DNA of 64,000 nucleotides from a virus (IMGVR_UViG_3300031993_000048:1-64000); one strand, 5' to 3'; shown: positions 6,057 through 44,243, counted from the stretch's first letter. Made by a program: numbers and translations. Notes: generated from the letters alone by a model not told the origin.

Positions 6057-6281
6057 TCACGAAAAAATCTTCGCGACGACATACCCTATCGCCGCGACCG
6101 TCCCCAGCGCGGCCAGGACGACGTCCCAGCCGCGCCACCTCGGCACGGAAGGCGGGGCGAACTCGCGCTCCGTCTCCTGCCTGCACTGCTCGCGCAGCCT
6201 CCAGAAGGCGCGGGCGCGGCGCTTCTCGCGCACCGCGGCCCTGTGCCTCGGGTTCGGCTTACGCCTCTTCGGCTTTCGCAT
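6057..6281 (-). CDS. 74-aa basic protein with C-terminal transmembrane helix
   Basis: ORF track; K/R-rich N-terminus, hydrophobic VVLAALGTVAAIGYVVA. Confidence 0.7.
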   Translation of the reverse strand: MRKPKRRKPNPRHRAAVREKRRARAFWRLREQCRQETEREFAPPSVPRWRGWDVVLAALGTVAAIGYVVAKIFS

Positions 6282-6609
6282 GCTCGGCGGTCTCCTTCGC
6301 TGCGCGGTCGGCGCGACGACGCTCGAACTCGGTCATCAGCCCGGCGGCGATGACCTTGTAGCGGCGCGTCTGGAAGGGGCGTTCGGCGGCCGCCTTCGCG
6401 ACCTCCTGGAGCGCCCACGTCGGGAGCTTCTTCAGCTCCTTGAGCGTGACCATCCTGTCGCTCTTCTCGACGAGAGGGCGGACCCTCTCGATCGCGTCGA
6501 ACCACGCGGAGCCCTTTTCAGGGCAGTCCGCGAAGTGCGCGCTCGCGGCGGCCGCGAACGCGGTCAGCGCCCACACGGCGCCGATCTTGACTGTTCTCTT
6601 GTTCTTCAT
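6259..6609 (-). CDS. Hypothetical protein, 116 aa, with hydrophobic Ala-rich N-terminus
   Basis: GGAAAGGA upstream of ATG 6609. Confidence 0.75.
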   Translation of the reverse strand: MKNKRTVKIGAVWALTAFAAAASAHFADCPEKGSAWFDAIERVRPLVEKSDRMVTLKELKKLPTWALQEVAKAAAERPFQTRRYKVIAAGLMTEFERRRADRAAKETAEHAKAEEA

Positions 6610-9362: not shown

Positions 9363-9770
9363 ATGAACCGTACCATATCGTTTGTCAGCCTCTTCCGCAA
9401 TACGCGCAAGAACGAAACCACCGGGAAGAACGAAATCTCCTGGGGCGCATCGTTCAAGGTCGACGGAACCGACATCGGCGCGACGCATCTGCCGGCGTTC
9501 GACCTCTCCTTGTTCGCGACGAAGCTGTCGCAGGACGGGAAGACTCGCTACCTCGGCAGCAAGCGTCCGCTGGTCGTCGAGTACAGCGACATCCGCGCCG
9601 GGAAGAAGGCAGGCAAGTTCTTCACGAACATCGCCGCCATCTACGAGCAGCCCGAAGCGGACGCGAACGCGCTCGACCGCCTGCTCGCGGGCGAAGCCGA
9701 GGCGACCGCGCCTGCGACGGACGAACCCGCCAACGCGAGCGAGGACGAAGACGAAGTCACCGAGTTCTGA
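9363..9770 (+). CDS. Putative single-stranded DNA-binding protein, 135 aa
   Basis: GAAAGGA upstream; beta-rich basic core with aromatics; acidic tail ending EDEDEVTEF, like SSB C-termini. Confidence 0.55.
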   Translation: MNRTISFVSLFRNTRKNETTGKNEISWGASFKVDGTDIGATHLPAFDLSLFATKLSQDGKTRYLGSKRPLVVEYSDIRAGKKAGKFFTNIAAIYEQPEADANALDRLLAGEAEATAPATDEPANASEDEDEVTEF

Positions 9771-9796
9771 TGACTCGAGGTCGCGTCGCATCGAAG

Positions 9797-9823
9797 CCCC
9801 CGAAGAGATTCGGGGGTTTCTTT
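9797..9823 (+). terminator. Intrinsic terminator after the SSB-like gene
   Basis: CCCCCGAA-GAGA-TTCGGGGG followed by TTTCTTT. Confidence 0.75.
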
Positions 9824-10272: not shown

Positions 10273-11832
10273 ATGGCAAGAAAGAAGAAGGAGGCGCTCG
10301 CCGTTCCGGCCGAGTCGCCCGATACGCCCGAGGCGCAGTCCGCCCTCGCGCCCGATACGCAGGGCACCCCTGCGCCCGAAACGCCCGAAACGCCCGAAAC
10401 GCCCGAACCGCCCGAAACGGACAAGCCCAAGTCCCCGCCCCTCGGCGAGACCGCCGACGACGTCTCGTCCGCGACGAACGTCTCGATCCCGGCGAGGAAG
10501 AACGCGCTCTCCCCGCACGTCGACGCGGTCGAGAGGATGGGCCTCGGCATGCTGCGCTTCGCGCTCGCCGCGGCGCTCTGCCCGCTCGCGCTCCTCGGCT
10601 CGCCGAAGGTCTCGGAGATCACCGTCGGGGACAACCCCGTGGCCTTCGCGATCGTGTCGGGGTCCGACCTCGCGATGGCCGTGGAGTACGACGTGAGCCC
10701 CATGCAGCTCGACGAGGTCGCGGTCGTGGCGCCCGACAAGTCGAACGGCACTTCCGTGGTCGTGAAGCGCAGGCGCCCCTACGGCCTTCCGTACATCGAG
10801 TCCGTCACGTACGAGGAGTACGGCAGGGCCCGTCCCCCTCTCGGCTCGTACGACGTGGAGACGGCTCCCGCGATATGGCACGCGAAGGCCGCCTCGGCCG
10901 ATTCGACCGGGATGGTGTGGCGGACGACGCAGGTCGTGACGAACTACGTCTACGACGCCGCCGAGGGGAAGGAGCGCTGGGTCGTCTCCACCAACGACTA
11001 CGTCTCCCCGTCCGCGATCCAGATGTCCCGCCTGTCGCTCGTGTCGGGCCCGACGGGATCCGGCTACAGCTACCCGTTCGGGCGCGACCTCCTCGCGACC
11101 CCGGCGTTCGGGACGTACGACTCCCGCCGCATCGCCTACTCCGTCGACTACAACGCGCTGGGCGTCATCGACATGGGGACGGGCGCGAATGACACGAACT
11201 CCGTCCCCGTGGCGGAGTGGACGCGCCTGGGCGGGATCACGAACCGGCTCTTCCAGTTCACGGGCGCGTACACCAACAGGACGGTCGTCTACTGCCGCGA
11301 CTGGCGGGACGGGCCGTTCGAGTGGATCGAGACCAACGGCACGTGGATCGCGGTCCGCGGAGGCGAAAGCGTGGCGACCGTGTCGAAGTATCTCGGCAAC
11401 GCCAACGACCCGTCGTACGGGCACGAGGCGGCGAAGTTCCTCTTCCGCCCGCTCGAGGCCGTGCTGGGGCGCAGCTGGGAATCGTCCGGCAGGTGGTTCG
11501 ACCCGTCCGTGTGGCGGCAGCCCGCGCCGTCCGCGTGGCTCGACGCGCCGGCGCAGTGCGTGACCTACGAGGACGGCATCGCGGCGGCCTGGCCGCGCGA
11601 CGCCTTCCCCGTCCTCTGGGCGGTGCCCTCCCACAAGGCGACCTACGTCGCCAACTGGGGGTCCAAGTCCGGGACCGTGGACGAGGTCCTCGCGACCGTG
11701 TCCCTGACCGGGAACGTGGGGCGCGTGGCCTTCGACAGGCCCGTGTCCCTCCTGAAGGGCGACGTGCTGTACGTGTCGTCCGGGATAGCGAGCAACGACG
11801 CGTTCCGCGTCACTTTCACGGGAAGGAGATAG
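10273..11832 (+). CDS. Putative virion or exported protein, 519 aa; PET-repeat N-terminus then a signal-peptide-like segment
   Basis: GGAGG upstream of ATG 10273 (3' part of track ORF 9382..11832). Confidence 0.75.
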   Translation: MARKKKEALAVPAESPDTPEAQSALAPDTQGTPAPETPETPETPEPPETDKPKSPPLGETADDVSSATNVSIPARKNALSPHVDAVERMGLGMLRFALAAALCPLALLGSPKVSEITVGDNPVAFAIVSGSDLAMAVEYDVSPMQLDEVAVVAPDKSNGTSVVVKRRRPYGLPYIESVTYEEYGRARPPLGSYDVETAPAIWHAKAASADSTGMVWRTTQVVTNYVYDAAEGKERWVVSTNDYVSPSAIQMSRLSLVSGPTGSGYSYPFGRDLLATPAFGTYDSRRIAYSVDYNALGVIDMGTGANDTNSVPVAEWTRLGGITNRLFQFTGAYTNRTVVYCRDWRDGPFEWIETNGTWIAVRGGESVATVSKYLGNANDPSYGHEAAKFLFRPLEAVLGRSWESSGRWFDPSVWRQPAPSAWLDAPAQCVTYEDGIAAAWPRDAFPVLWAVPSHKATYVANWGSKSGTVDEVLATVSLTGNVGRVAFDRPVSLLKGDVLYVSSGIASNDAFRVTFTGRR

Positions 11833-11836
11833 CGCC

Positions 11837-12256
11837 ATGTCCATGTACGATCCCACGAACGTCGATATGAGGCAGGCGAAGTCGCTCGACGCGGCGTTCG
11901 CCAAGATAAGGGCCCTCGAGGCCGAGGTCCGGCAGGTCGGGGCCAGGGCGGTCCCGTCCGTCATCGACCTCCCGGCCGACTACCTCGAGAAGCACGACAC
12001 GCTGGACTACTCCGAATGGTTCCCGGACGGGGTAGGGAGCGCCGTCTTCATCCTGCACTCGACCGATTCGCTGTCCGAGGGCATCCAGGAGAACGGGCTG
12101 TCCGGGTTCGTCGAGGGCGACAGGACGGACCTGTCCTCCCCCGGCGTCTATCCCGACGCGAGCGAGATGGAGGGCCCCGGCGTCGACCTCTTCCTCCGCA
12201 TAACCCTGTTGGGCGAATACATCGTGGCCGAGCGGCTCGCGTACACCTACCTGTGA
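11837..12256 (+). CDS. Hypothetical protein, 139 aa
   Basis: ORF track; GGAG upstream. Confidence 0.75.
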   Translation: MSMYDPTNVDMRQAKSLDAAFAKIRALEAEVRQVGARAVPSVIDLPADYLEKHDTLDYSEWFPDGVGSAVFILHSTDSLSEGIQENGLSGFVEGDRTDLSSPGVYPDASEMEGPGVDLFLRITLLGEYIVAERLAYTYL

Positions 12257-12270
12257 CCGGAGGACGCCCG

Positions 12271-13173
12271 ATGGCCAACATAGCGGACATATTGCAGGAC
12301 GCGGCGTGGCCGGACGACTACCCGGCCAGCGTCGGGTTCGTCCGCCGCCAGCTGTACGTCGGCCGCGCCCTCGTGTGCGGCTACCTGCACGAAGGGGAGT
12401 TCTACCCCGACACCGACCACGACGAGCCGTTCGCGCACGTCGACGAGAGGATCTTCGTCGACATCCCGAGCGGGCAGGCGTACCGGTGGGGAGGGTCGTC
12501 GTACGTGGGCGTCTCCGTGACGACCTCCGACGACCTGTCCGCCGTGCACTACGACAGGCCGGACGGCAAGGGCGCGGCGGAGAAGGCGCAGGCCCTCGAG
12601 AACCTCGGGGCCGCGTCCGCCGCGGCGCTCTCGACCCTGGCGGGCATCGTGGGGGCGATCTCCCCCAAGGCGGCCGGGTGGGACGCGGCGAAGGCGAAGG
12701 TCGACGACCCCGTCTCCCCCGCGAGCGGCTCGACGAAGCTGACGACCGCCGGGCAGGTCTTCGCGTGGGCGACGACGTACTTCGCGTCGCTCCAGGTCGC
12801 GTGGTCGAACCTCACGTCGAAGCCGACGACGCTCTCCGGCTACGGGATAACGGACGCCGTGAAGTCCGTGAAGGTCGGAGACGCGGCGGCGGTCTCGCCG
12901 GACGCGAACGGCGTCGTGAACCTCCCCGCCGCCAGCATCAGCGACCCCAACGCCCTCAAGGTCGACGGCTCGCAGACGCTCACCGCCGCCCAGAAGTCGA
13001 ACGTCCTCGCGGCGCTCGGAATGTCGGGAAGCTCGCCCGCGCCCGTCGTGAGCGCGGCCGAGACGGCGAAGGCGTGGTGGGACTCGCACGGGGCGGACAT
13101 GACGAACGCCGAGAAGACCTCGCTTCTCCAGAAGATCGTGAACTACATAGCCGCGAAGGAGGGACTGTCGTGA
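12271..13173 (+). CDS. Tail fibre-like protein, 300 aa
   Basis: IFVDIPSGQAYRWGGSSYV and WSNLTSKPTTLSGYGITDA motifs typical of phage tail fibres; GGAGG upstream. Confidence 0.7.
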   Translation: MANIADILQDAAWPDDYPASVGFVRRQLYVGRALVCGYLHEGEFYPDTDHDEPFAHVDERIFVDIPSGQAYRWGGSSYVGVSVTTSDDLSAVHYDRPDGKGAAEKAQALENLGAASAAALSTLAGIVGAISPKAAGWDAAKAKVDDPVSPASGSTKLTTAGQVFAWATTYFASLQVAWSNLTSKPTTLSGYGITDAVKSVKVGDAAAVSPDANGVVNLPAASISDPNALKVDGSQTLTAAQKSNVLAALGMSGSSPAPVVSAAETAKAWWDSHGADMTNAEKTSLLQKIVNYIAAKEGLS

Positions 13174-15059
13174 ACGTCCTCTCTATCATGCTCGCCGCGG
13201 CGGTGACGACCGCGCAGATGAGCAGCCTGCGCGATTCCTCGACCGTCGTGACGGGCGTCGACGCCGGGGCGTTCCTGGCGTCCTCCAACAACACGTACTC
13301 CGCCGGGAGGACGAACCTGCTCTTCTCCGGCGGGACCGTGAGGTCCTCCGGGACCGCGTTCGTCGTGGACGGGGGCGGGCTCGCCCTGAAGCCCGGGACG
13401 CCGCTCGTGATCGAGGGGCCCGTGTACCTCCCGACCAACGCCCTGGCGTCCGCGTCCATCCCCGGATGGGAGTCGCTCGACCAGAGGATGGACCGGAAGC
13501 TCGTCGGCCTCTACTACTACGACACGGACCGGTACGGGAACCGCACCGCGATAACGCAGGGCGCCCGCGACCCGAGCTACCCCGTGGGGCCCTGGAGCGT
13601 CTCCATAGGCCCGTTCGCCTCCGCGAGCGGCTACTACGCCCTCGCGGGCGGGATGGACTCCCTCGCGTCCGGCGCGTCGTCCCTCGCGTACGGCACGGCG
13701 GCGAGGGCGACCGCGGACGACGCGTACGCCATAGGCTACGCGCCCGTGTCGTCGAACCAGTACGCCTTCACGTGGAACGGGAGGACGGGGTACTTCTACG
13801 GCTCGCACGGGCGCGGGACGTTCAACATCTTCCCCGCCGCCGGCGTCGACGGGTTCTGGATCGGCGAGCAGACGCTCGCGGACTACGTGACCTCGAGGGT
13901 CTCCGGCTTCGCGAACCCCTCGTACCCGTTCACCTTCCGCGCCGCGCTCGGCGACTCCGGCATACAGTTCTCGACCCTCGCGGGCGGCAACCGCCAGGTG
14001 TTCACCGGCGGGACCGCGCTCGTCATGCAGGACGGGTCGACGCTCGTCGTCTCGTCCAACGCCACGCTCGCCGTGGCGCGCCCGTGGGACGTGACGGTCG
14101 GAGGGACCGCCCTCGACTCGTGGGTCGCCTCCCTCGCGGCCTCCGCGAACGAGGGCGCCGTGAAGGCCGTCGTGGAGTCGGAGACGGGCGGGACGAACGC
14201 CGTCCGGGCCGCCGCCTCCTTCGCCGCCCTCAACGCGACGAAGTGGACCGGTGAGGGCTCCGCCGCCGGCATGGTCCTCCTGCGCGATCCCGTCGAGGGC
14301 AGGTGGACGGACGGGACGAACTACATCGTCTGGTCGGACATCTCGACCTGGAACTACTACGGGACGAACGGGACGGGCTCCGCCTCGGGAGGCCTTACGG
14401 CCGGAAGGATAGTCTTCGACGGGATAGACGGCGACTTCGCCTTCGTCGCCTCCCCGGACGGGCGGGGCGACTTCGTGCGGGCGACGGACGTCGCCGCCCT
14501 CGCGCCGCCTCCCGGGAACTACCTCGCCGTCAGCAACGCCGCGCTGGCCTCGCAGTCCCTCGAGGCCGCGAGGACCGGGTTCGGCGAATGGCGCGCCCCG
14601 ACGAACGCGACGTACGAGCTCGTCGAGATGATAATAGATGGCGGGTGGTGCGCGGTGAGGTTCAGGCTCGACGGGTCGGCGACGGTGTACGACGCGATGC
14701 CGAAGCCGTACCAGGACGACATGACGAACTTCACGTTCAACGCCGGGCTGCCCCCGCTCGTCCGCGACCGCTTCCCGACGATGGCCGACCTCGGCGGCTT
14801 CGCGAAGGCGTCCGACCTCGAGGGCGTGGCGCATGCGAGCGACCTCGCCGGGGTAGTGACCGCCGCCGTCGTGACGAACGTCGTCCGCTCCGTGGTCGCC
14901 ATGACCTCGGACTACGTGTGGGACGCGCAGGCGGAGTGCCTCTTCAGGCGTTCGATGGAGAACCAGTACCTCTACTGGACGCCGGTGACGAACGTGAACG
15001 CGCTTCTCCCCGAGAACGCGGAAGTGCTGGAGTACCTGGAGGCGCACAAGAATGACTAA
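13170..15059 (+). CDS. Tail fibre/adhesin-like protein, 629 aa, with signal-peptide-like N-terminus and YadA-head-like repeats
   Basis: GTG start (VNVLSIMLAAAVTTA); 14-aa repeats IGPFASASGYYALAGGMDSLASGASSLAYGTAARATADDAYAIG at ~13605-13736. Confidence 0.65.
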   Translation: MNVLSIMLAAAVTTAQMSSLRDSSTVVTGVDAGAFLASSNNTYSAGRTNLLFSGGTVRSSGTAFVVDGGGLALKPGTPLVIEGPVYLPTNALASASIPGWESLDQRMDRKLVGLYYYDTDRYGNRTAITQGARDPSYPVGPWSVSIGPFASASGYYALAGGMDSLASGASSLAYGTAARATADDAYAIGYAPVSSNQYAFTWNGRTGYFYGSHGRGTFNIFPAAGVDGFWIGEQTLADYVTSRVSGFANPSYPFTFRAALGDSGIQFSTLAGGNRQVFTGGTALVMQDGSTLVVSSNATLAVARPWDVTVGGTALDSWVASLAASANEGAVKAVVESETGGTNAVRAAASFAALNATKWTGEGSAAGMVLLRDPVEGRWTDGTNYIVWSDISTWNYYGTNGTGSASGGLTAGRIVFDGIDGDFAFVASPDGRGDFVRATDVAALAPPPGNYLAVSNAALASQSLEAARTGFGEWRAPTNATYELVEMIIDGGWCAVRFRLDGSATVYDAMPKPYQDDMTNFTFNAGLPPLVRDRFPTMADLGGFAKASDLEGVAHASDLAGVVTAAVVTNVVRSVVAMTSDYVWDAQAECLFRRSMENQYLYWTPVTNVNALLPENAEVLEYLEAHKND

Positions 15060-15246
15060 CCTCGTATTGACGGCCCTGCTCGCCATGTCCCCCGCGGACT
15101 TCGCGCAGCTCACGAACCGCGTGGACGTCCTGTGGACGGCCCACACCCAGCGCGTCGAGAGGATCGAGCGCGCCCGCGAGAACGCCCGGAGGCGCCGCGA
15201 GGGCCCGCCCGACAGGCCGTTCCGCGCGAAGGGAGGAAGGCGATGA
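15052..15246 (+). CDS. 64-aa protein with hydrophobic N-terminus and basic C-terminus
   Basis: ORF track; coupled to both neighbours. Confidence 0.7.
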   Translation: MTNLVLTALLAMSPADFAQLTNRVDVLWTAHTQRVERIERARENARRRREGPPDRPFRAKGGRR

Positions 15247-16004
15247 GGAAGCTCCTTCTCCTGCTTCTCCCGCTCTCGCTCCTCGCCGATCCGGTCAGGA
15301 TGCGCGAGCTCATGGTCGGCGACGACGGGTCGCTCAACTCGACGAACGCCGTCGCCACGCAGGCCGACCTCGCCAGGGTCGCCGCGTCGAACCAGGTGGC
15401 CGTCGCCGAGCTGAACGCCGCGAGGCAGGGCTACGACCAGGCCGTGGACCTCCTGTCCGCCGTCGCGACGAACATCGCCGCCGGGACGCCCGTCGTCTTC
15501 TACTCCGTCGAGCTCTCGAGCTTCGACGCCGCCGTCGTCTTCGACGAGAACACCGACAAGGTGAAGGTCATAGGCTTCACGGACACGAAGGAGACGGACA
15601 CCGTGCGCGGGACGGCGTGCCGCAAGTGGCGCATCCGCTTCGCCTTCACCGCCGACCTCCAGTCCGTGCAGCCGAGCGTCGCGTACGCGCAGGTCATCGA
15701 CGGCACTCCCGCCGGCGACTGGGAGAACCTGCACGAGGACAACGTCTCGGCCGCCGTCGCCGAGGAGGGGACGTACACGGACGGGGACGGGAACACCTAC
15801 TCCCACGTCTACCACGTGGACGCGTGGCTCCCCGTCGCGAACTCCGGCTTCTCCTTCGTGCGCATACCCAACGACGCCGCGATCGCGGACGGGGCGACGC
15901 TCGACCTCCCGAACGGGGTGAGCGGCGGCGCCACGACGACCGTGACGTGGGGCGGGAAGACCCTGACGTTCCGGGGCGGACTCCTGACGGAGGTGGGCGA
16001 GTGA
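15243..16004 (+). CDS. Putative exported or virion protein, 253 aa (MRKLLLLLLPLSLLA-DP...)
   Basis: GGAAGG upstream; classic signal-peptide-like N-terminus. Confidence 0.75.
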   Translation: MRKLLLLLLPLSLLADPVRMRELMVGDDGSLNSTNAVATQADLARVAASNQVAVAELNAARQGYDQAVDLLSAVATNIAAGTPVVFYSVELSSFDAAVVFDENTDKVKVIGFTDTKETDTVRGTACRKWRIRFAFTADLQSVQPSVAYAQVIDGTPAGDWENLHEDNVSAAVAEEGTYTDGDGNTYSHVYHVDAWLPVANSGFSFVRIPNDAAIADGATLDLPNGVSGGATTTVTWGGKTLTFRGGLLTEVGE

Positions 16005-16789
16005 TCTGCGGACTTGCCATGAAGGCGCTCGTCGCCCTGCTCGCCGCGTGCCTCGCGGCCCTCGCGTGCATCTGGATGAAGCCCCTCCTCTCGAGGGCGT
16101 CGTCGAGGCTGTCCGGCTGGGAGAAGGCCGTCCTGCTCCTCGCGGTCGCGGCGTTCACGTTCTACGGCGGCTCCAAGTCGATCATGTCGAAGACGTCGCA
16201 CGACCCGGAGATCGGGCTCTCGGCGGCGGAGTACGTGAAGGGGACGAACGGCGTCCCGGCGTCCCTCGTCTCCTCCCTCGGGGCCGGGACGAACATGGTC
16301 GCGTACGCCTTCTCCGTCACCAACTCGGCGCTGACGGCGGAGGAGCTTCTCGCGAAGCTGTGGTTCCGCGAGGACAACCGGAACGCGTGGACGAACTTCG
16401 CCGCCGCCGGGGTCTCGATGCAGACGGCGTCCGAGACGCACAGCCCCACCACGACCGTGTGGCTCGCCTACGCCACGAACTCGTGGGAGCACCAGCAGAT
16501 ATACGTCGGCGACGACCTTCCCCCCGTGTACGTCGAGACCGAGGGCGGCATAACGCTGGACTCCCTCGTCATGACGTCGAAGAAGGCGACGATAACCTAC
16601 ACCGTCGACGCGTCCGCGCTCACGGGCCCGGGGCAGGTCGTCTTCGAGAGGATGGCGACGGGCGGGAACTGGGCGGCCGTGAGGACCGTCGAGGCCTCCG
16701 CCGGGACGCACTCCGAGGTGTTCTTCGGGTTCTTCGTCAGGATCCGCACGATGTGGCGCATAAGGCTTCAGGTGGAGGTGACGGAATGA
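16001..16789 (+). CDS. Membrane-anchored protein, 262 aa (two N-terminal hydrophobic helices ending AFTFYGGSK, then beta-rich domains)
   Basis: GTG start overlapping the previous stop; 3' part of track ORF 15617..16789. Confidence 0.7.
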   Translation: MICGLAMKALVALLAACLAALACIWMKPLLSRASSRLSGWEKAVLLLAVAAFTFYGGSKSIMSKTSHDPEIGLSAAEYVKGTNGVPASLVSSLGAGTNMVAYAFSVTNSALTAEELLAKLWFREDNRNAWTNFAAAGVSMQTASETHSPTTTVWLAYATNSWEHQQIYVGDDLPPVYVETEGGITLDSLVMTSKKATITYTVDASALTGPGQVVFERMATGGNWAAVRTVEASAGTHSEVFFGFFVRIRTMWRIRLQVEVTE

Positions 16790-17622
16790 GGTGGCTGGTT
16801 CTCCTTCTGCCCTTCGCGGCGTTCGCCCAGCTGGGCGCGGACAGGTCGGTGGTGGCCGAGTCCGTCTCCAACGTCCACACCAACTACTCGTGGAGGAAGA
16901 ACGTCATAATGGAGACGGAGGGCGGGCAGCTCCGCGACAAGCAGCACGCGCTCGCCACCGTCGCCAACGCCTCCGCGCAGGCCGAGACCGCGGACGGCGT
17001 CGGACGCGTAGCCTCCGCGTGGAGGCAGGGGTTCTCGAACGGCGTCGAGTCCCTGTCCGCCACGCTCTCCAGCGTCCCGCGCACCGGGCGGTACGTCTCC
17101 CTCCGGTTCCCGCTCGTCCCGCAGACCTCGCGCAGGTTCGACATCTACGTCGTCTCCAACCGGTACGACTCCGCCGCGAACGAGGACATCCTCTGGATAT
17201 ACTTCGGGCAGAGCTACACGAACCCGCCCACGATGATGGTGCCGTACGTCTACGAGTCCGGCTTCACGACCAACAGGGTCGCCGCCTCGTGGAAGAAGGC
17301 GGGGACGACCGACCACTTCACGAACACGGTGACGCTCGTCGGGCGGGCCGACGGCGCGAACAGGACGTACGTGTGCCACAAGCTGCACGTCCCGCGCCCG
17401 GCGGTGCTCGCGGGCGTCCCGTGCAACCTGGACCCGCACGGGAAGTGGGGCGGTCCGGGCGGCGTCGTCTTCGGGAGCTACCTCCTGACCGTGACGCAGT
17501 CCGGCGTGACCTACCCGACCTACACGGGACCCGTCACCAACCAGGAGGCGGGGGTAGTTGCGTTGTTTGACAACGGCGCGTTCCTCGGAACGGTGCCCAT
17601 AGGAGAGGAGATCGGACAATGA
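16786..17622 (+). CDS. Putative exported or virion protein, 278 aa (MRWLVLLLPFAAFA-Q...)
   Basis: GGAGG upstream, ATGA coupling; AxA signal peptidase-like site. Confidence 0.75.
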   Translation: MRWLVLLLPFAAFAQLGADRSVVAESVSNVHTNYSWRKNVIMETEGGQLRDKQHALATVANASAQAETADGVGRVASAWRQGFSNGVESLSATLSSVPRTGRYVSLRFPLVPQTSRRFDIYVVSNRYDSAANEDILWIYFGQSYTNPPTMMVPYVYESGFTTNRVAASWKKAGTTDHFTNTVTLVGRADGANRTYVCHKLHVPRPAVLAGVPCNLDPHGKWGGPGGVVFGSYLLTVTQSGVTYPTYTGPVTNQEAGVVALFDNGAFLGTVPIGEEIGQ

Positions 17623-18080
17623 AGAAGATCGCAATGCTGGCCGTGATGTTCCTTGCCGCCGCGGCGTCCGCCGCGGGGCTCGACAAGGTGACGGTGTCGA
17701 GGCTCGAGTCCATCGCGTCGCAGCGGAGGCTCCAGTCGAGGGTCGTCACGAACGGGACGATGATCTGCACCTACGTGCAGGCGGGGAGGACGTGGACGGT
17801 CACGAACCGCCTCTTCTCCGCGACGGGGTACGCCCGCCCGCCCGTCTACTCGAAGCTCAAGATGTACGTCGTCTTCTCGAAGGCCGGCCACTGGGACGCG
17901 CTCAAGGCGTGGCTCCAGACGCAGACCGTCGAGGGCGTGAACGCCTGGGAGGCGTTCGACATGTGCAACGAGGTGGCGTCCGACAACCCGCTGTTCCTCC
18001 AGTGGCTTCCGGTGGCGGAGGCCGCGCTCGGGGTGGACGACGCGACGGCGAAGGCGTTGCTCAAGCAGTGCGAGCAGTAG
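17619..18080 (+). CDS. Putative exported protein, 153 aa (MKKIAMLAVMFLAAAASA-A...)
   Basis: ORF track; textbook Sec signal peptide. Confidence 0.8.
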   Translation: MKKIAMLAVMFLAAAASAAGLDKVTVSRLESIASQRRLQSRVVTNGTMICTYVQAGRTWTVTNRLFSATGYARPPVYSKLKMYVVFSKAGHWDALKAWLQTQTVEGVNAWEAFDMCNEVASDNPLFLQWLPVAEAALGVDDATAKALLKQCEQ

Positions 18081-18090
18081 GGAGGCGGAC

Positions 18091-18507
18091 ATGAAGCTCA
18101 CGATACGCAAGTACGATCCCGCGAACCCGACGAGGATCCACATCGACGAGGGTGGCTGCATCTTCTCGTCGAACTCCTACGACGTCCGGGTGTTTGCCGA
18201 CGACTTCAGGACGGACACGACCACGAAGGGGCACCTCCGCCTCCTGCGCAAGGCGTCGGAGGAGGACTCGGAGCTCACCGAGTACGCGAAGTGCCTCCTC
18301 GTCGCCGACCCCTACCGCAGGGACTGCCGCGCCGGGACGCTCGTCGTGAACGACCTCGCGCACGCGGAGCTGTGGGCCGCGCTCGCGCCCGAGAGCAGGC
18401 GGAACATCGACGACGGCTTCACGCTGGAGGTGACTCTCCAGGCCGGGGCGAGTCGCGTTGTCTACGCGCAGGTGCCGGTCATGCTGGCGCCCGCGGAGGG
18501 GGAGTAG
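18091..18507 (+). CDS. Hypothetical beta-rich protein, 138 aa
   Basis: ORF track; GGAGG upstream. Confidence 0.75.
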   Translation: MKLTIRKYDPANPTRIHIDEGGCIFSSNSYDVRVFADDFRTDTTTKGHLRLLRKASEEDSELTEYAKCLLVADPYRRDCRAGTLVVNDLAHAELWAALAPESRRNIDDGFTLEVTLQAGASRVVYAQVPVMLAPAEGE

Positions 18508-18508
18508 C

Positions 18509-18991
18509 GTGGACGTCATCGCCGACAACCAGACGGAGGCCACCATCGCCAAGCTGCGGCGCGGGGAGGCGACCGACGCCATCCGCGACGAGGTGTCGGC
18601 GGCCCTGCTGTCCTCGATGCAGACGATCATCGCCGAGCTCGGGGAGATGAAGAAGAGCCTGTGGTCCGCGCAGACGCTGAAGGACCTCGTGGACGAGAGG
18701 CACAACGTCCGCTGCGCGTCGTGCCCGGCGAAGCAGTTCGCCAGCATCCAGGCCGTGCTGGCCTCGCAGAAGAAGCAGGAGGACGCCGGCGGAAAGTCGG
18801 AGGACGCGGGCGGAAAGCCGGGGGAGAAGCCATCGTGGCTCCAGCTTCTCCTCTCGTCCGAGTCGATAAGGTACTTCATACTCATCCTCGTCCTCGTGTG
18901 GGCGGTCATCTACATCAAGACCGGCCCGGAGGGCGTGGACGCGGTGAAGGGCGGGGTCGCCCATACGGTAACGGGAGGACAAGTCAAATGA
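18509..18991 (+). CDS. Membrane protein, 160 aa, with C-terminal TM helix (holin-like candidate)
   Basis: GTG start; YFILILVLVWAVIYI; position next to lipoprotein and protease genes. Confidence 0.55.
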   Translation: MDVIADNQTEATIAKLRRGEATDAIRDEVSAALLSSMQTIIAELGEMKKSLWSAQTLKDLVDERHNVRCASCPAKQFASIQAVLASQKKQEDAGGKSEDAGGKPGEKPSWLQLLLSSESIRYFILILVLVWAVIYIKTGPEGVDAVKGGVAHTVTGGQVK

Positions 18992-19116
18992 AGTGGATGT
19001 TCGCAGTCGTCGCGCTGGCCCTGCTGGCCGGCTGCGCGTCGAGGCACGAGCTGCCGAGCGGGGACCGGTTCCCGGAACCCGACCGGTGGTGGCTGGCTGG
19101 AGGAAACGGAGAATGA
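18988..19116 (+). CDS. 42-aa lipoprotein (spanin-like candidate) MKWMFAVVALALLAG-CASRH...
   Basis: Lipobox LAGC; ATGA coupling. Confidence 0.7.
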   Translation: MKWMFAVVALALLAGCASRHELPSGDRFPEPDRWWLAGGNGE

Positions 19117-19808
19117 ACAAGTACGAGAAGCTGTTCTTCCCCGGCGCCCTGAAGACGCCGGAGAAGCTGAAGTCCAGGGCGTTCTGCGCGGCGAAGAACT
19201 TCGAGCCGCCGAAGGAGCTCATACTGTCGGGGTACTGCGTGCCCGTCGACAACCAGGGGCAGACCCCGTGGTGCGCCGCGTACAGCGCGGCCAACTACGC
19301 GGAGAACATCCTCTGGCGCAAGCGGGGCTACCACTCCGAGATCGACCCGGAGCCGCTGTACAGGTACGCCAAGTCGATCGACGGCGACCCGCACGGCGAC
19401 GGGACGTACCTGGAGTGCACGCTCGAGGCGCTCGTCAAGTACGGGCACTTCGACGGGACCCTGTGCAAGATCAGGACGTTCGGCGGGCCCGGGTTCGGGC
19501 GCGACGCCGCGTCCGCGCTCCTGGACGTCAAGTACGCCGTCCACAAGTACGGCATCTGCATGGCCGGGTTCAACGTCTCCTCCGAGTGGTTCCGCCCGAA
19601 GAACGGCGTCATCACCGGCGCGACGAAGGACAGCGAGGGCGGCCACGCCGTCCTCATCTGCGGGTACGACGAGGGCGGCGTCCTCGTGCAGAACAGCTGG
19701 GGCAAGGACTACGGCCACGGCGGGTTCGTGTACGTTTCCAACAAGGCGTTCGCCGACCAGTTCATATACGGCGCGATCCTCACGCGGTCGCTCGACGGGT
19801 TCAACTGA
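19113..19808 (+). CDS. Papain-like cysteine peptidase (family C1-like), 231 aa
   Basis: DNQGQTPWCAAY (oxyanion Q, catalytic C), GGHAVLICGYD (H), QNSWGKDYGHGGF (N). Confidence 0.9.
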   Translation: MNKYEKLFFPGALKTPEKLKSRAFCAAKNFEPPKELILSGYCVPVDNQGQTPWCAAYSAANYAENILWRKRGYHSEIDPEPLYRYAKSIDGDPHGDGTYLECTLEALVKYGHFDGTLCKIRTFGGPGFGRDAASALLDVKYAVHKYGICMAGFNVSSEWFRPKNGVITGATKDSEGGHAVLICGYDEGGVLVQNSWGKDYGHGGFVYVSNKAFADQFIYGAILTRSLDGFN

Positions 19809-19822
19809 TCCCGGGAGGGCGG

Positions 19823-21760
19823 ATGGCCGACAGCGGGTACAGGCGGTACTACGGGCAGGACTGGCCTCCCGTGCCCGACGGGCGCGGGAACCTCGTCCCC
19901 GTCACCAAGGCGTTCGCCGGGCTCGTGATCGGGAAGAAGTGGCGGTTCTTCAAGGCCCAGCAGGACATCGAGTTCGACGTCGAGCCGTGGGTCGCCATGC
20001 TGGACGCGGCGAAGGCGCTCATACCCGAGCGGTACTTCGTCGTCTCCGAGTGGACGGAGCAGCACTTCCACGACTGGTGCATGTGCCCGAAGGGGATCGT
20101 CACGATCGGCTGCGCGTCGTGCGGCAAGTCGTGCGACACCGGGAACCTCATGGTCCTCGACTACATCGTCGACCCGTTCGACACCGTGATACTGCTCGGC
20201 TCCACCACGAAGGAGGCGCTCAAGTCCCGCTCGTGGAACTTCGTCCAGCAGTACCACGCCGCGCTCTGCAACAACAGGCTCGGGCTCGCCGTCCCCGGCA
20301 AGATCACGAAGGCGGGGTACGCCCTCGTGAACGTGAGCGAGGACGGGTCGCCGGAGTCCGTCGGCGACAAGGCCGGCATACAGGGCAGGGCCCTCAACGA
20401 GGACGGCAACCTCCAGGGCGCGCACGCGAAGTTCGTGCGCCTCGTCGTCGACGAGCTCGCCACGATCCGCAACCACGACGCGATCAAGACCGCGATGACG
20501 AACCTCCGCGTCGGCGCCCTCGACTTCAAGTTCGCCGCGCTCGCCAACCCCGAGAGCTGGGACGACCCGTCGTGCCAGTACATCGTGCCGGAGGGCGGGA
20601 CGAAGGCCGTCGACGTCGACACCGGGTTCTGGGTGTCCACCCGCGGCTACTGGGTCAGGCACCACGACGGGCTCAAGTCGCCCGCGCTCAAGTCGCCGGA
20701 GGCCGCCGCGAAGTTCTCGTTCCTGATGACGCAGGACGTGATAGACGACAACCTCCGCGAGTGCGACGGCAACTGGGACGCGCCGCAGATGTGGAAGATG
20801 GTGCGCGGGTTCCCGATGCCCGTGAACGTCTCGGCCCCGACCGTCCTCGACAGGAAGGTCGGCGAGCAGAACAAGGTGACGGAGCCCGTGGAGTCCTACG
20901 GCAGGCCGCCGGTCGCGGTGGCCGCGGGCGTCGACCCCGCGTGGAGCGACGGCGGCGACGGCGCGATCTACCAGCGCGTCCTTATAAGGAACGTCGACGG
21001 GCGCCTGGTGCTCGACTTCTCCGACGGGCAGAGGAAGCTCGCGATCGGCGCGACGAAGGGCGTCCCCGTCTCGCAGCAGCTGATAACGCAGGTGAAGGAG
21101 ATCATGCAGTCGCCGGGCGACTACTGCGCGCCGCTCTCCGCGACCGCCGTGGACGCGTCCGCGAACCAGGGCCTCGCCGACGACCTCGACATGTTCATCG
21201 GCCAGGGCGCCGCGTCGTGCCTCCACGTCAACAACTCCAACAGGGCGTCGTCGAACCCGATAAGGGCGATGGGCGTCGGCAGGGCCGACAAGAAGGACAG
21301 GCAGGTCGAGCGGTGCTGCGACAGGTACGGCGACCGCGGGACGGAGGCGTGGTGCGTCCTCGCCGAGTTCTGCAAGGCCGGGCAGGTGCGCGGGCTCCCG
21401 GAGGAGGCGTTCCGCCAGCTCACGCAGCGCAGGTTCATGCTCGTCACGAAGAAGGTGAACGGCGAGACGATGTCCTCCGGCGTGAGGTTCCCGCTCCGCC
21501 TGGAGCCGAAGGACGATTTCAAGAAACGGATAAAGAAGTCCCCCGACGAGTGCGACGCGTGCGCCCTCGCGGCGCTCGCGGTGAAGGAGGCGCTCGGCCT
21601 CCTGCCGTTCGGATGGATGGCCCCCGCGGACGTTCCGCTCACGGGCCCCGCCGTGCCGCCCGCGCCGCTCGAGCTCGTCGACGTGCCCGACCCGGAGGCG
21701 TACTGCGCCGCGCCGGACTCGGGGCCGTGCGGGGCCGGAGAGGAGGATCCCTCATGGTGA
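19823..21760 (+). CDS. terL: Terminase large subunit, 645 aa
   Basis: Walker A GCASCGKS, Walker B LVVDE, nuclease motifs GVDPAWSDGGD and KKSPDECDA. Confidence 0.88.
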   Translation: MADSGYRRYYGQDWPPVPDGRGNLVPVTKAFAGLVIGKKWRFFKAQQDIEFDVEPWVAMLDAAKALIPERYFVVSEWTEQHFHDWCMCPKGIVTIGCASCGKSCDTGNLMVLDYIVDPFDTVILLGSTTKEALKSRSWNFVQQYHAALCNNRLGLAVPGKITKAGYALVNVSEDGSPESVGDKAGIQGRALNEDGNLQGAHAKFVRLVVDELATIRNHDAIKTAMTNLRVGALDFKFAALANPESWDDPSCQYIVPEGGTKAVDVDTGFWVSTRGYWVRHHDGLKSPALKSPEAAAKFSFLMTQDVIDDNLRECDGNWDAPQMWKMVRGFPMPVNVSAPTVLDRKVGEQNKVTEPVESYGRPPVAVAAGVDPAWSDGGDGAIYQRVLIRNVDGRLVLDFSDGQRKLAIGATKGVPVSQQLITQVKEIMQSPGDYCAPLSATAVDASANQGLADDLDMFIGQGAASCLHVNNSNRASSNPIRAMGVGRADKKDRQVERCCDRYGDRGTEAWCVLAEFCKAGQVRGLPEEAFRQLTQRRFMLVTKKVNGETMSSGVRFPLRLEPKDDFKKRIKKSPDECDACALAALAVKEALGLLPFGWMAPADVPLTGPAVPPAPLELVDVPDPEAYCAAPDSGPCGAGEEDPSW

Positions 21761-26068: not shown

Positions 26069-29000
26069 ATGGGGGTCCACGTCAGTCCAGTGGCGGCGGA
26101 TGACGCCGGATGTTTTGCGGCGCTGCGCCAGGTAAGCCGCGCGCAGACGGCATGGGGCCACCCCGGGAGCGACAACGGCCCGTCCGTCTGGACGACTACG
26201 TGGGCGGTGGACGCCAACGCGGCCGACGGGTGGTACCTCGACTACATAGACGTACAGGTGGTGACGCGCTGTACGATGTGGAACAGCCAGTACTACGGGG
26301 GCAGTCCCCGTCCCGCGGACCGCGTGACGTCGTTCAGGCTCGCGGCGGGCGGCACGTTCGTGACGAAGACGTCCACGGAAACTTGCGCCATAGCGTTGTC
26401 CGACAGCGGCTACCATGGCGACCACCATACGTACGTGCAGGAGGTCTTGTCGGTCGTCGCGCACTTTTCCACGTCGCCGACGCCGGAGACCGGGACGTCC
26501 AAATGGGGCTCGGAGGGCGGCGGGATAGACCCGGGCGCGGGCGACGAGGTGTCCGGCACGGCCAAGGACCCGTGGACCGCGTCCGCCGACGGGGGCGGCA
26601 GCCAGACGGAGAGCGTGCCCGACCCTTCGTGGATTCAGGTAAACGTGTCGGCCTCCCCCTCGGGGATGGGTGTTGTCGCCGGCGGAGGGCTGCGCCAAGG
26701 TCGTGTCGGCGAGATGGCCACGTTCGGTCTGTCCGCGAAGCCCCTCGATCCCCTGAAGTTCAGGTTCGTCAAATGGACGCGTAATGGGGCGACCGTCGGG
26801 ACTGACGAGAACATCTTTCCGCAGTTCCGCTATCAGGCGGGCACGACGGCGGCCAGCCCGACCACATACAATTACACGGCGGTGTTCGAGCAGATCGCGC
26901 CGTCCGTGAGCGTCAAGGCGGAGATGTCTCCGTCCGTGTCCTACTGGCGGGTGTCCCCGTCCGACCGCGAGCGCCGGTACAAGAACGGCGACAACACGGT
27001 CGAGGACTTCCAGGTGTTCGCGTGGGCGCAGGGCGAGGAACCGTCCGACCCCACGGAGCAGTACCGGTTCGACCACTGGGAGATAACGAGCGGGAGCGAG
27101 TACGCCACGATCAGCGACCCGAACAACCCGACGGCGATAGTGCGCGTCGAGTACGGGCCGGGCGGGACCGACAGGGACGTGACCGTGCAGGCCGTCCTCC
27201 TGTCGAACAAGCCGTACGTCGTGCAGATCTCCGCCGTCGCCGGGAACCCGGCGATGGGCGACGTCTCCGGCGGGCTCTACAGGATCGACGCAGTCGAGGG
27301 CGTCAAGTACTGCACGCAGCTTTCCGCGACCCCGAAGGCCGGGTACCGGTTCACCGGATGGTCGAGCGACAAGGGCGGGTCCGCACCGTCCGCGAGCTTC
27401 AACGCGTGCCTGACGTGCAGCTCCGACGAGAACCAGAACTCGGTCACGTGGACGGCGCACTTCGAGCCCGACCCGGACGCCCCGATCATCCCGGAGTTCA
27501 CCGGCTCCGTCGGGGGCGGCGGGAGCGGGAGCGAGAGCGGGTCCGGCGAGCCGCCCCCCGAGTGGTCGGGCACGACGGAGCGCTCCGCGGTCCGCGTGAC
27601 CGTGACATGCGACGAGACGAAGGGCACCGCCACGGTCGGCGGGGGCGCGTCGGACCTGCGCACCGGCTACGTCGGCCAGACGCGCACGCTCTCGCTCGAG
27701 GCGAAGCCGAAGGCGGCGTCCGGCTCCCCGGCGTGTCCGCTCTACAAGTTCGCCGGATGGTACGAGAACGGGACGCTCCTGTCCGAGGACGCGGTCCACT
27801 TCATCGAGCACGTCCTCCAGCCCGGCTACTCCGAGGAGTCCCCGGAGGAGCGGACGATCGAGGCGAGGTTCGAGCTCGCGGGCCCCGTCATCCATCTCGT
27901 CGCAAGCGTGTCGCCGGACGCCGGCGAGTGGTCCGTCTCCCCGTCGGAGAAGTGGTTCGCGAAGACGGGCGACTGCAAGGACAGGACGAACGAGGCCGAG
28001 CTGCTCGTCGCGTCCATGAACGCGGGCGCGTCGATCTACAAGTTCGACCGCTGGTCCGTCTCCGGCGCGGGCGCGTCCCTGACGGGGACGACGAACCCCG
28101 CGACCACCGTGTCGATGCAGTACCCCGAGGGCACGGAGATACGCACGGTCGAAGTCACCGCCGTCCTCAAGGAGAAGCGCAAGGTCTGCGTCACCTTCAA
28201 GGCGTCGGCGGGGGCCGGCGGCTCCGTGTCCGGCGGAGGGAAGGAGTGCGGGCGGGAGGGCGACCGGATATGCTCCCCGAATCCGCTCGTCGCGACGCCG
28301 GACGAAGGGTACAGGTTCGTCGGGTGGACGGGCCCGTCGCCCTCGGACGACGACTCGTTCACGCCGTGCGTGCTCGCGTCCGCCGCGGGCGTGCCCGGCG
28401 ACGGGGACGTCGAGATCGAGAGGACGTGGACGGCGAACTTCGAGGCGCTGCCGGAGACCTCGTCCGGCGGCGAGTCCGAAGGCGGCTCCGGGGGCGGCTC
28501 CGGCGGAACTCCCCCGCCCGGATCGGAGGGCGGCTCCGAAGGCGGTTCCGGCGAAGGATCGGGCACGTCCGGCTCCGGCGGGGAGACGACCGGAGAGGAA
28601 TACGTCTACATCGAGATCACGGCGAAGATCGCCGACGACAGCCCGTGCGGCGGCGCCGTGTCGAACGCCGGCGGGTCCTGGTACCTCCTGCGCGGCGACG
28701 AGGTGTACTTCGTCTCCGAGGCGTTCCCGGAGGCCGGGTGCACGGTCGTGGAGTGGGTGGACAACGACGGCGTCGTGCGCTCCACGGGCCCGCGCGTCGA
28801 GATCACGGTGCCCGCCGACAGGGACAGGGAGATCACGCTCACCGCGATCCTCGCGTCCTCGACCGAGCCGGAGACCTCGACGGCCGACCAGACGGAGTCG
28901 GGCGGAGAGTCCTACGTCGAGTTCAAGACGGAGACGACCGGGCCCGGCAAGGGGGCGACGTCGCCTTCGTGGGACAGGAAGCGCGGGGAGCCTGGCACCG

Positions 29001-29260
29001 ACGTGACGTTCACGACTACCGCGTACCCGAACCCCGGGAGCAAGTTCCAGGAGTGGAGGGACGAGGGCGGGAACGTCATATCGCAGGAGCCCACGCTCAC
29101 GGTGTCCGTCACCGTCGCGGACGAGCCGCAGACGGTGACGTACACGGCGGTCATGGCGATAGTCGGCCCGCTCCTGTACGGGGACGACGGGTCGCTCCTG
29201 TACGGCGCGGGATGCGCCGGACCCGTGTACGCCGACAAGGTGGTGAAGATGGACGGTTGA
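26069..29260 (+). CDS. Adhesin or decoration-like protein, 1063 aa, with ~8 divergent InlB-B-like beta-grasp repeats
   Basis: Repeated G-x-V-S-G-G ... A-x-P-x-x-G-Y-x-F-x-x-W ... x-T-A-x-F units. Confidence 0.75.
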   Translation: MGVHVSPVAADDAGCFAALRQVSRAQTAWGHPGSDNGPSVWTTTWAVDANAADGWYLDYIDVQVVTRCTMWNSQYYGGSPRPADRVTSFRLAAGGTFVTKTSTETCAIALSDSGYHGDHHTYVQEVLSVVAHFSTSPTPETGTSKWGSEGGGIDPGAGDEVSGTAKDPWTASADGGGSQTESVPDPSWIQVNVSASPSGMGVVAGGGLRQGRVGEMATFGLSAKPLDPLKFRFVKWTRNGATVGTDENIFPQFRYQAGTTAASPTTYNYTAVFEQIAPSVSVKAEMSPSVSYWRVSPSDRERRYKNGDNTVEDFQVFAWAQGEEPSDPTEQYRFDHWEITSGSEYATISDPNNPTAIVRVEYGPGGTDRDVTVQAVLLSNKPYVVQISAVAGNPAMGDVSGGLYRIDAVEGVKYCTQLSATPKAGYRFTGWSSDKGGSAPSASFNACLTCSSDENQNSVTWTAHFEPDPDAPIIPEFTGSVGGGGSGSESGSGEPPPEWSGTTERSAVRVTVTCDETKGTATVGGGASDLRTGYVGQTRTLSLEAKPKAASGSPACPLYKFAGWYENGTLLSEDAVHFIEHVLQPGYSEESPEERTIEARFELAGPVIHLVASVSPDAGEWSVSPSEKWFAKTGDCKDRTNEAELLVASMNAGASIYKFDRWSVSGAGASLTGTTNPATTVSMQYPEGTEIRTVEVTAVLKEKRKVCVTFKASAGAGGSVSGGGKECGREGDRICSPNPLVATPDEGYRFVGWTGPSPSDDDSFTPCVLASAAGVPGDGDVEIERTWTANFEALPETSSGGESEGGSGGGSGGTPPPGSEGGSEGGSGEGSGTSGSGGETTGEEYVYIEITAKIADDSPCGGAVSNAGGSWYLLRGDEVYFVSEAFPEAGCTVVEWVDNDGVVRSTGPRVEITVPADRDREITLTAILASSTEPETSTADQTESGGESYVEFKTETTGPGKGATSPSWDRKRGEPGTDVTFTTTAYPNPGSKFQEWRDEGGNVISQEPTLTVSVTVADEPQTVTYTAVMAIVGPLLYGDDGSLLYGAGCAGPVYADKVVKMDG

Positions 29261-43859: not shown

Positions 43860-44243
43860 ATGGACATCAGCAAGTGGATGATAGCGATCAAGCTCCTGTT
43901 CGGAGGGGTCGGCGCCGTGGCAAGCTACGTGCTCGACCTGCTGAACAAGGCCCTGGCGGCGCTTCCCGCGGGCAACCGCGTGAAGATTCAGGCCGTCCTG
44001 AACCTGGCGGAGCGCGTCCTCTCCGTGCTGACCGCGCTGAAGTGGCTCTGCCCGACGAAGTGGCAGACCGCGTACGGCAAGTCGGTCGACGCGGTGGAGA
44101 CGGTCGTCGCCGCGCTGGCGGACCTGACCATCACGGTCGACGAGATCGGGAAGGTGCGCAAGGCGTTCGCCGAGGCGGTGGCCTCGTGGAAGGGCGACGA
44201 TGACGAAACGTGCGTCGACTGCGTCGACTGCGACGTCGGTTGA
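43860..44243 (+). CDS. Amphipathic or membrane protein, 127 aa, ending CVDCVDCDVG
   Basis: AAGGAGG upstream of ATG 43860; hydrophobic N-terminus WMIAIKLLFGGVGAVASYVL. Confidence 0.75.
   Translation: MDISKWMIAIKLLFGGVGAVASYVLDLLNKALAALPAGNRVKIQAVLNLAERVLSVLTALKWLCPTKWQTAYGKSVDAVETVVAALADLTITVDEIGKVRKAFAEAVASWKGDDDETCVDCVDCDVG

Follow-up and report, generated by a model that had tools for sequence, protein, structure and literature searches.

A block of nine genes at positions 10273-18080 of the viral sequence IMGVR_UViG_3300031993_000048 raises the question of why a phage late operon should encode proteins marked for export next to genes that resemble those of tail fibres, when textbook tailed-phage assembly is wholly cytoplasmic. 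The window that we analyzed is the first 64 kb (64,000 nucleotides) of a single 77,601-bp contig with a GC content of 69%. It comes from a rumen phage whose host is probably a Kiritimatiellae-type bacterium, an assignment based on binned contigs and on prophages that carry related cassettes. We found that the block has two parts, a variable front (g1 to g4) and a conserved cassette (g5 to g9). That the cassette proteins are exported or membrane anchored, and not cytoplasmic, is well supported by their N-terminal sequences, and the fibre-adjacent gear of this phage is very probably made outside the cytoplasm, the compartment in which particles of tailed phages are assembled. The whole of our reading, in which the fast-changing, fibre-like front and the conserved, mobile cassette form a module for the extracytoplasmic maturation or display of a fibre or adhesin, stands in our judgment on an even balance.

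Leaders were called by a crude rule of our own, together with conservation of the leader design among homologues. Strong leader calls were made for four of the nine block genes, compared with 7/62 genes outside the block (Fisher p = 0.03). The clearest signals are those of g6 (positions 15243-16004, + strand, 253 amino acids [aa]), g8 (16786-17622, + strand, 278 aa), and g9 (17619-18080, + strand, 153 aa). All three have the classical tripartite design of a basic start, an uncharged core, and small residues at positions -3 and -1; the cores are 11-17 residues long, where approximately 7-15 are expected, with a mean Kyte-Doolittle hydropathy of 2.0-2.8, and relatives of each protein share the basic n-region, M followed by K/R. 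The g6 protein starts with MRK and has a Leu-rich core and a predicted cut between LLA and D, followed by a helix and a beta-rich domain. In g8, a start of MR leads into a putative signal peptide cut between AFA and Q, and then come a disordered linker, a hairpin, a helix, and a beta-sandwich. The last gene of the conserved core, g9, starts with MKK, has a predicted cut between ASA and A, and appears to encode a small secreted protein.

This design is maintained across large sequence distances. A word-indexed search returned 24 close relatives of g8 with 38-78% identity, and every one keeps the leader: M-K/R, a core that varies in both sequence and length, Ala-x-Ala, and then Gln-Leu-Gly-Ala-Asp-Arg. 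At the cleavage site, Ala14 never varies and Gln15 hardly does. When 1.84 billion representatives were searched with a profile, the g8 family came to 78 clusters at 50% identity. A leader or anchor is present in 86 of its 88 full-length members, down to approximately 22% identity; by our own rule, 73 members have a canonical leader, 13 have an uncharged or anchor-like N-terminus, and 2 have neither. Low-GC members of the family share the same leader design. These leaders therefore cannot be put down to the abundance of Ala and Leu in high-GC coding. The leader is likewise kept in all relatives of g6 (9/9) and g9 (12/12), as is the anchor of g7 (8/8), and the hydrophobic cores are variable. An earlier note on this DNA had proposed that proteins of this late operon are exported or anchored instead of cytoplasmic and had named retention of the signal peptides in homologues as a check. 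The check came out in favor of that proposal, with signals kept from low-GC to high-GC members.

The remaining cassette genes, g7 and g5, carry hydrophobic segments of other kinds. The g7 protein (16019-16789, + strand, 256 aa) has hydrophobic N-terminal helices with a basic loop between them, and the alignment shows a conserved YGGSK closing the second helix at the membrane edge, ahead of a beta-rich domain. Thus g7 is presumably an inner-membrane anchor whose domain beyond YGGSK is periplasmic. Short forms of g7 (111-125 aa) in loci L021 and L022 have the same transmembrane helix and YGG(S/T)K. We considered whether g7 might be a lipoprotein and rejected this, because its LAAC at residues 8-11 lies too early, a leader that ends in a lipobox (L-[AS]-[GA]-C) being expected to span approximately 15-25 residues, and is absent from relatives. 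The g5 protein (15052-15246, + strand, 64 aa), kept in close relatives only, has a short hydrophobic N-terminus and a very basic C-terminal tail. Its hydrophobic run is approximately 9-12 residues with no K/R before the core, and its membrane association or leader is doubtful. The earlier note had quoted seven hydrophobic segments from the block. All of them are present in the genes named, and those of g6 to g9 are robust, but the segment of g1 is internal, that of g4 is uncharged, and that of g5 is doubtful.

Two of the conserved proteins are also related to each other. Homology between the g6 and g8 families extends over their full length (hhalign probability 98%, E = 2e-13, 224 columns). 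The only protein of the block that could be modeled well was g8, for which AlphaFold2 gave a predicted local distance difference test (pLDDT) score of 44 with the 24 close sequences and a mean of 81 with 73 sequences. The model has a hairpin at residues 41-51, a 40-residue helix at residues 56-95, and a beta-sandwich at residues 120-271 with pLDDT values of >90. The long helix packs against nothing in the monomer model, which suggests that the working form may be an oligomer. BLASTP found no paralogues of block genes elsewhere in the genome.

We found no described family for these proteins. Nothing significant was found for g1 to g10 in Pfam, PHROGs, NCBIfam, or PADLOC apart from weak PHROG matches of g3, and the 73 g8-family members gave no significant family match. 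Sequence and profile searches of solved structures returned no match. Fold searches were run with the g8 model as a whole: Foldseek gave no match against the PDB or BFVD at E <=0.001, and with VIA-align, in a wide search and a second look, all matches had Z scores of <5, the best being single long helices and generic beta-barrels. The ESM Atlas held no usable match for g8. For g9, its neighbours in the Atlas are viral hypothetical proteins, clusters resembling tail fibre assembly proteins appear only at chance level (score 0.75), and there is no Pfam or PHROG match to Caudo_TAP, the tail fibre assembly chaperone. Thus, g6 and g8 represent an uncharacterised protein family with a confident g8 model and no clear fold match. 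A literature search returned no paper on exported tail fibres, on Kiritimatiellae phages, or on a cultured Kiritimatiellae phage. The suggestion that this is an undescribed system therefore holds for the protein families and structures, but leader-bearing proteins at the tail end are already on record for Cellulophaga phage phi10:1.

The cassette, in whole or in part, is found in many other places. Related loci came from rumen metagenomes, from a 163-kb IMG/VR contig (L001), and from genome bins, which include two contigs of a sheep-rumen Kiritimatiellae metagenome-assembled genome. The ordered core g6-g7-g8-g9 is present in at least 10 loci, including prophages of Kiritimatiellae/Verrucomicrobiota. 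Whole or partial, this order was seen in L001-L008, L014-L016, L021, L022, L025, L026, L028, and L029, as well as in one prophage from a complete genome; the g7 profile also had matches in further loci. Between the window and L003, identity is 73% for g6, 81% for g7, 77% for g8, and 62% for g9, so that the cassette is better conserved than the large terminase (TerL, 58%). Between the window and L001 (57% GC), similarity is confined approximately to the cassette, plus one small protein at 32% identity, and with L015/L016 it is the cassette only. These comparisons indicate that the cassette is common to phages whose head and tail genes have no detectable similarity and that it is horizontally mobile. 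The family occurs in 3/151 Kiritimatiellae genomes and 8/401 genomes of the phylum, a sporadic occurrence that fits carriage by phages.

Wherever the flanks suffice, the cassette comes at the far end of the late operon of a prophage. G087 has an HK97-type capsid gene (phrog_247, E = 2e-70) first, then genes for a tape measure and for two large proteins with leaders, and after them the cassette, which is followed by a lipoprotein gene and the host miaA; one of the two large proteins matches a tail-fibre PHROG (E = 2.4e-7). In a complete 6.1-Mb genome, terminase, portal, and capsid genes are followed by a gene for a leader-bearing 493-aa protein, the cassette, and genes for a holin-like protein and a lipoprotein. 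Proteins at the position of g4 carry leaders in L003, L004, L014-L016, L022, and G295, and that of L022 includes a match to a tail-fibre PHROG (E = 2.4e-7).

In the window, the cassette lies in what appears to be a single transcription unit. One long + strand arm spans positions 9363-71847, with short minus-strand genes at both contig ends. The nine + strand genes fill positions 10273-18080, each preceded by a GGAGG-type ribosome-binding site and joined by overlaps of 4-8 nucleotides (nt) or gaps of <=14 nt, and their reading frames are backed by a GC content at third codon positions (GC3) of 0.9-0.98. The strongest terminator-like hairpin of the region, with a 12-bp stem, 7 GC pairs, and a T-run, is at 9793-9820. 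It sits between a gene for a 135-aa protein (9363-9770) and the block, and a noncoding stretch of approximately 450 nt precedes g1. From 10273 to the terminase gene there is no terminator-like site with a strong stem. The terminase gene (19823-21760), which follows a C1 peptidase gene, is the sole recognisable morphogenetic gene of the phage (phrog_2, E = 7.6e-8), and searches of IMG/VR and INPHARED turned up nothing closely related to the terminase.

The front of the block behaves differently from the cassette. Across the more closely related loci, g1 to g3 and the body of g4 are replaced, while the cassette is accompanied by g5 and by the 62-87 residues at the end of g4. The g4 protein (13170-15059, + strand, 629 aa) is fibre- or adhesin-like and has an uncharged, leader-like N-terminus with a possible cut between TTA and Q. 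This N-terminus has no basic residue, yet it aligns with the canonical leaders of proteins from P0104, L003, and L004. The C-terminal 62-87 aa have 65-82% identity in L001-L004, the remainder of the protein being swapped; the last approximately 65 aa thus form a distinct module that is conserved alongside the cassette. We rejected the possibility that g4 is a trimeric autotransporter adhesin of the YadA type. YadA_head repeats (PF05658) had no Pfam match in g4 at E <=0.1, the Ser/Ala/Gly-rich repeats being visible by eye only, so the label of a YadA-head-like adhesin in the earlier note was overstated; nor did Pfam give a match to an anchor family of the beta-barrel kind at the C-terminus.

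The best fibre candidate of the front is g3 (12271-13173, + strand, 300 aa), which is weakly tail-fibre-like and has no export signal. Its PHROG matches range from E = 1.4e-5 to 1e-3 and include the tail fibre family phrog_7389 (E = 1.3e-4). A short P2 gpH-type motif lies at approximately aa 175-230, and a tblastn search with aa 170-270 retrieved genes annotated as tail fibres, with E values of 2e-3 to 0.6; tblastn with the whole protein returned no matches. To call g3 a clear tail fibre gene was therefore an overstatement, these matches and one short shared motif being the whole of its resemblance. Ahead of it, g2 (11837-12256, + strand, 139 aa) belongs to the variable part and has no export signal. 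The first gene, g1 (10273-11832, + strand, 519 aa), follows a Shine-Dalgarno GGAGG and encodes a Pro/Glu/Thr-rich N-tail of 92 residues, an internal hydrophobic segment at aa 93-109, and a 410-aa body. The N-tail is coding, with a GC3 of 0.8-1.0 and an in-frame 9-aa indel in the only homologue (84% identity), so the hydrophobic segment is a candidate signal-anchor and not a cleaved leader. A shorter g1 would have an N-terminal leader if it began at Met89 or Met93, but an upstream GC3 of 1.0 and the same indel led us to reject such a start. We regard g1, which had no match in Pfam, PHROGs, or NCBIfam and is absent at the related loci, as a candidate signal-anchor membrane protein with its N-terminus inside.

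What the analysis shows is a set of conserved signals, a pair of paralogues, a fixed gene order that is mobile, a predicted fold, and a position in the late operon. From these we reconstruct a route for the proteins; the export step, the complex, its tie to g4, and the final use all belong to the reconstruction. The g6, g8, and g9 proteins would cross the inner membrane through Sec and be cut by signal peptidase I, and g7 would remain anchored in the inner membrane, its body projecting into the periplasm. The paralogues g6 and g8 might pair through their long helices, and g6, g8, g7, and g9 together would make up a membrane-tethered periplasmic assembly. This assembly could partner an exported, exchangeable, fibre-like protein of the g4 class by way of the coconserved g4 C-terminal module. 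The module would be made late in infection, and its products might either join released particles at lysis or stay on the cell envelope. A place in the virion is favored by the position of the cassette, which is translationally coupled to fibre-like genes, by the leaders that proteins at the g4 position carry, and by the phi10:1 precedent.

Several observations weigh against this proposal. The leader rule also fires on 7 of the 62 other phage proteins, so the rule alone proves little. There is no charged n-region in g4 or g5, and g3 is the best fibre candidate yet leaderless. Our picture of a complex in which g6 pairs with g8, and of its link to g4, is drawn from coconservation and one monomer model. 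The g5 gene and the g4 C-terminal module are undetectable in L015/L016, and their coupling to the cassette is thus documented within the closer group of loci. An integral membrane protein such as g7 would be an odd partner for a virion, and lysis-like genes lie close to the cassette in several contexts, which also speaks against a virion role. Finally, the best-conserved part of the g8 family is the C-terminal beta-sandwich; receptor-binding heads usually vary most.

A more specific version of the proposal is that tailed phages of Kiritimatiellae/Verrucomicrobiota assemble their particles in two compartments. Heads and tails would be made in the cytoplasm, while Sec-exported fibres would fold in the periplasm on an inner-membrane scaffold of g6 to g9 and join them at lysis. 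We offer this version tentatively and think it rather unlikely. If it were true, the cassette would be the first dedicated machinery for the extracytoplasmic maturation of tailed-phage virion parts. More generally, a conserved, mobile cassette would place several late, fibre-adjacent proteins beyond the inner membrane across phages with unlike heads and tails. Should the products reach the particle, this would be an undescribed route of virion maturation; should they stay on the envelope, they would be phage-encoded envelope effectors of a new class, found in the Kiritimatiellae lineage. The g6/g8 family can also help to connect uncultured rumen phages with their hosts.

Among the other explanations, the one that survives best is that the cassette is a host-envelope accessory unrelated to fibres, which would either help lysis by a spanin-like logic or block or mask a receptor as T5 Llp and Cor-like proteins do. 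It would then serve superinfection exclusion or protect progeny from debris, and its adjacency to fibre genes, common for genes of this sort, would be incidental. We consider this unlikely, although we take it seriously. A putative inner-membrane anchor with helical partners in the periplasm would suit such a function, as would the moron-like movement of the cassette among phages otherwise without recognisable kinship. The conserved C-terminal domains are unlike fast-evolving receptor binders, and the genes llp and cor themselves adjoin the receptor-binding genes of T5 and T1/phi80. Small membrane protein and lipoprotein genes lie directly or closely 3' of the cassette in the window, L002, L022, and the G295 prophage.

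In the window, these downstream genes appear to belong to the same transcription unit (18091-19808, + strand). The first, g10 (138 aa, + strand), starts just downstream of the block at 18091. It is followed by genes for a 160-aa protein with one C-terminal transmembrane segment (18509-18991, + strand), a proline-rich 42-aa lipoprotein with the lipobox LAGC (18988-19116, + strand), and a papain-family C1 peptidase (19113-19808, + strand; Pfam Peptidase_C1, E = 2e-9). The genes from 18509 to 19808 look like a lysis cassette; they are coupled through 4-nt overlaps, and all three are kept in L002-L004. No muramidase or amidase was seen among the phage proteins scanned. That a separate candidate lysis set exists downstream argues against the accessory explanation, as does the finding that the L001 cassette is not beside recognisable lysis genes. 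Furthermore, g6, g8, and g9 have no lipobox, the cassette has no PADLOC or Pfam match, and four conserved proteins are many for an exclusion function. The coconservation of the g4 C-terminus would also be left unexplained.

A second explanation is that the cassette is a bacterial surface fibre or adhesin system that was captured by prophages, serves the lysogen through lysogenic conversion, and is a passenger in this lytic-looking phage. It fits the presence of the cassette in Kiritimatiellae/Verrucomicrobiota prophages, where it is found at the prophage end beside host genes. We find it distinctly improbable, however, with so few genomes of the phylum carrying the family, with phage late genes beside the cassette at every locus long enough to judge, with the window copy translationally coupled in a late operon, and with no integrase found among the proteins scanned, in a scan that was not exhaustive. 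The idea that the hydrophobic N-termini are not export signals at all and belong to ordinary cytoplasmic virion parts, as Ala/Leu-rich products of high-GC coding or as structural N-termini, can appeal to the missing basic residues of g4 and g5, to the too-short run of g5, and to the inflation of Ala and Leu by high GC, but it is hardly credible given that low-GC members share the design, that 86 of the 88 g8 members comply, and that the charge-hydrophobic-AxA pattern persists while the sequence drifts, the opposite of what a structural element would do.

Other features of these genomes deserve mention beside the module that we propose. Export signals are not limited to late genes in this phage: an early-arm gene at 6259-6609 (minus strand) encodes a 116-aa protein with a canonical leader (basic start, hydrophobic core, and a predicted cut between AFA and A). 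Within the structural arm, positions 26069-29260 encode a 1,063-aa protein that has no leader and contains three divergent InlB B-repeat (Flg_new_2) domains (E = 2.7e-22); its product is a candidate surface-binding virion protein. At two of the other loci, leader-bearing proteins stand out. In L022, a Kiritimatiellae prophage, an 880-aa protein encoded at 11190-13832, just upstream of the fibre-like gene, carries a leader and is extremely Cys rich, with dozens of C-x-C and C-G-C motifs, which suggests a metal-bound or disulfide-rich extracytoplasmic protein. Downstream of the cassette in L001 (12666-15393), three tandem genes for proteins of approximately 290-305 aa have canonical leaders and a similar start after the leader; another exported family seems to have expanded here through local paralogues.

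A small protein family is encoded at 43860-44243 in the window, 17902-18237 in L001, and 19607-19948 in L022, three phages that all carry the cassette and are otherwise unlike. Its members share an N-terminal hydrophobic motif, K-x-L/F-F-G-G followed by D-Y-L-L, and those of the window and L001 have 32% identity. This family may be a membrane or lysis protein. In the window, it precedes a single gene of 7,044 codons that runs from 44478 past the window end to contig position 65612 and takes up 27% of the phage genome; its GC3 is 0.97, and it has a GGAGG-type ribosome-binding site. A similar long gene seems to begin at 18326 in L001, after the homologous small protein. Directly behind the giant gene, outside the window, lies a second cluster of exported-protein genes (L035 1609-7847, corresponding to contig positions 65609-71847). 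It encodes a 192-aa protein that begins with a leader, a lipoprotein of 124 aa (LCAGC), and a protein of 1,143 aa that carries a leader or a lipobox, together with a leaderless 488-aa protein (66564-68030) that passes the Pfam YadA_head threshold (26.9 bits; cut-off 25).

We compared the cassette with known systems. It resembles the lambda Rz/Rz1 spanins in combining a putatively anchored inner-membrane protein with periplasmic helical domains or partners, encoded close to genes for holin-like proteins and lipoproteins. A spanin system consists of two proteins of approximately 60-150 aa, one of which is an outer-membrane lipoprotein. The g6, g8, and g9 proteins, by contrast, lack a lipobox, are larger, and have predicted beta-sandwich domains, and a separate 42-aa lipoprotein is encoded downstream. 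We therefore rejected the identification of the cassette as a two-component spanin, with no lipobox in these three proteins and with sizes and domains that differ. The Llp protein of T5 and the Cor protein of T1/phi80 are, like the cassette products, exported proteins encoded beside host-recognition genes. They are single small lipoproteins, whereas the cassette has a four-gene core without a lipobox and without a PADLOC match.

A closer likeness in gene order is seen in P2 H-G, lambda stf-tfa, and Mu S-U, where small, conserved partner genes come after an exchangeable fibre gene at the end of a late operon and where the cassettes move between unlike phages; g3 even has the short P2 gpH-type motif. 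The products of these three systems are cytoplasmic and leaderless, and their fibres have a conserved N-terminus and a variable C-terminus. Here the polarity of conservation is reversed, and the partners carry predicted export signals. By its leaders and position, the cassette is also like the genes for gp091-gp094 of Cellulophaga phage phi10:1 (GenBank KC821618), which are consecutive leader-bearing genes of a late operon at the distal end of the tail module. The host of phi10:1 belongs to the Bacteroidota, and we saw neither a membrane-anchored member nor a paralogue pair among the four proteins. All four start with canonical leaders, and the record, which gives no mechanism, annotates them as structural proteins detected by tandem mass spectrometry, although detection in purified particles does not prove incorporation. 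Thus, with leader-bearing proteins annotated as structural on record in phi10:1, the phenomenon that we propose for the rumen phage has a precedent.

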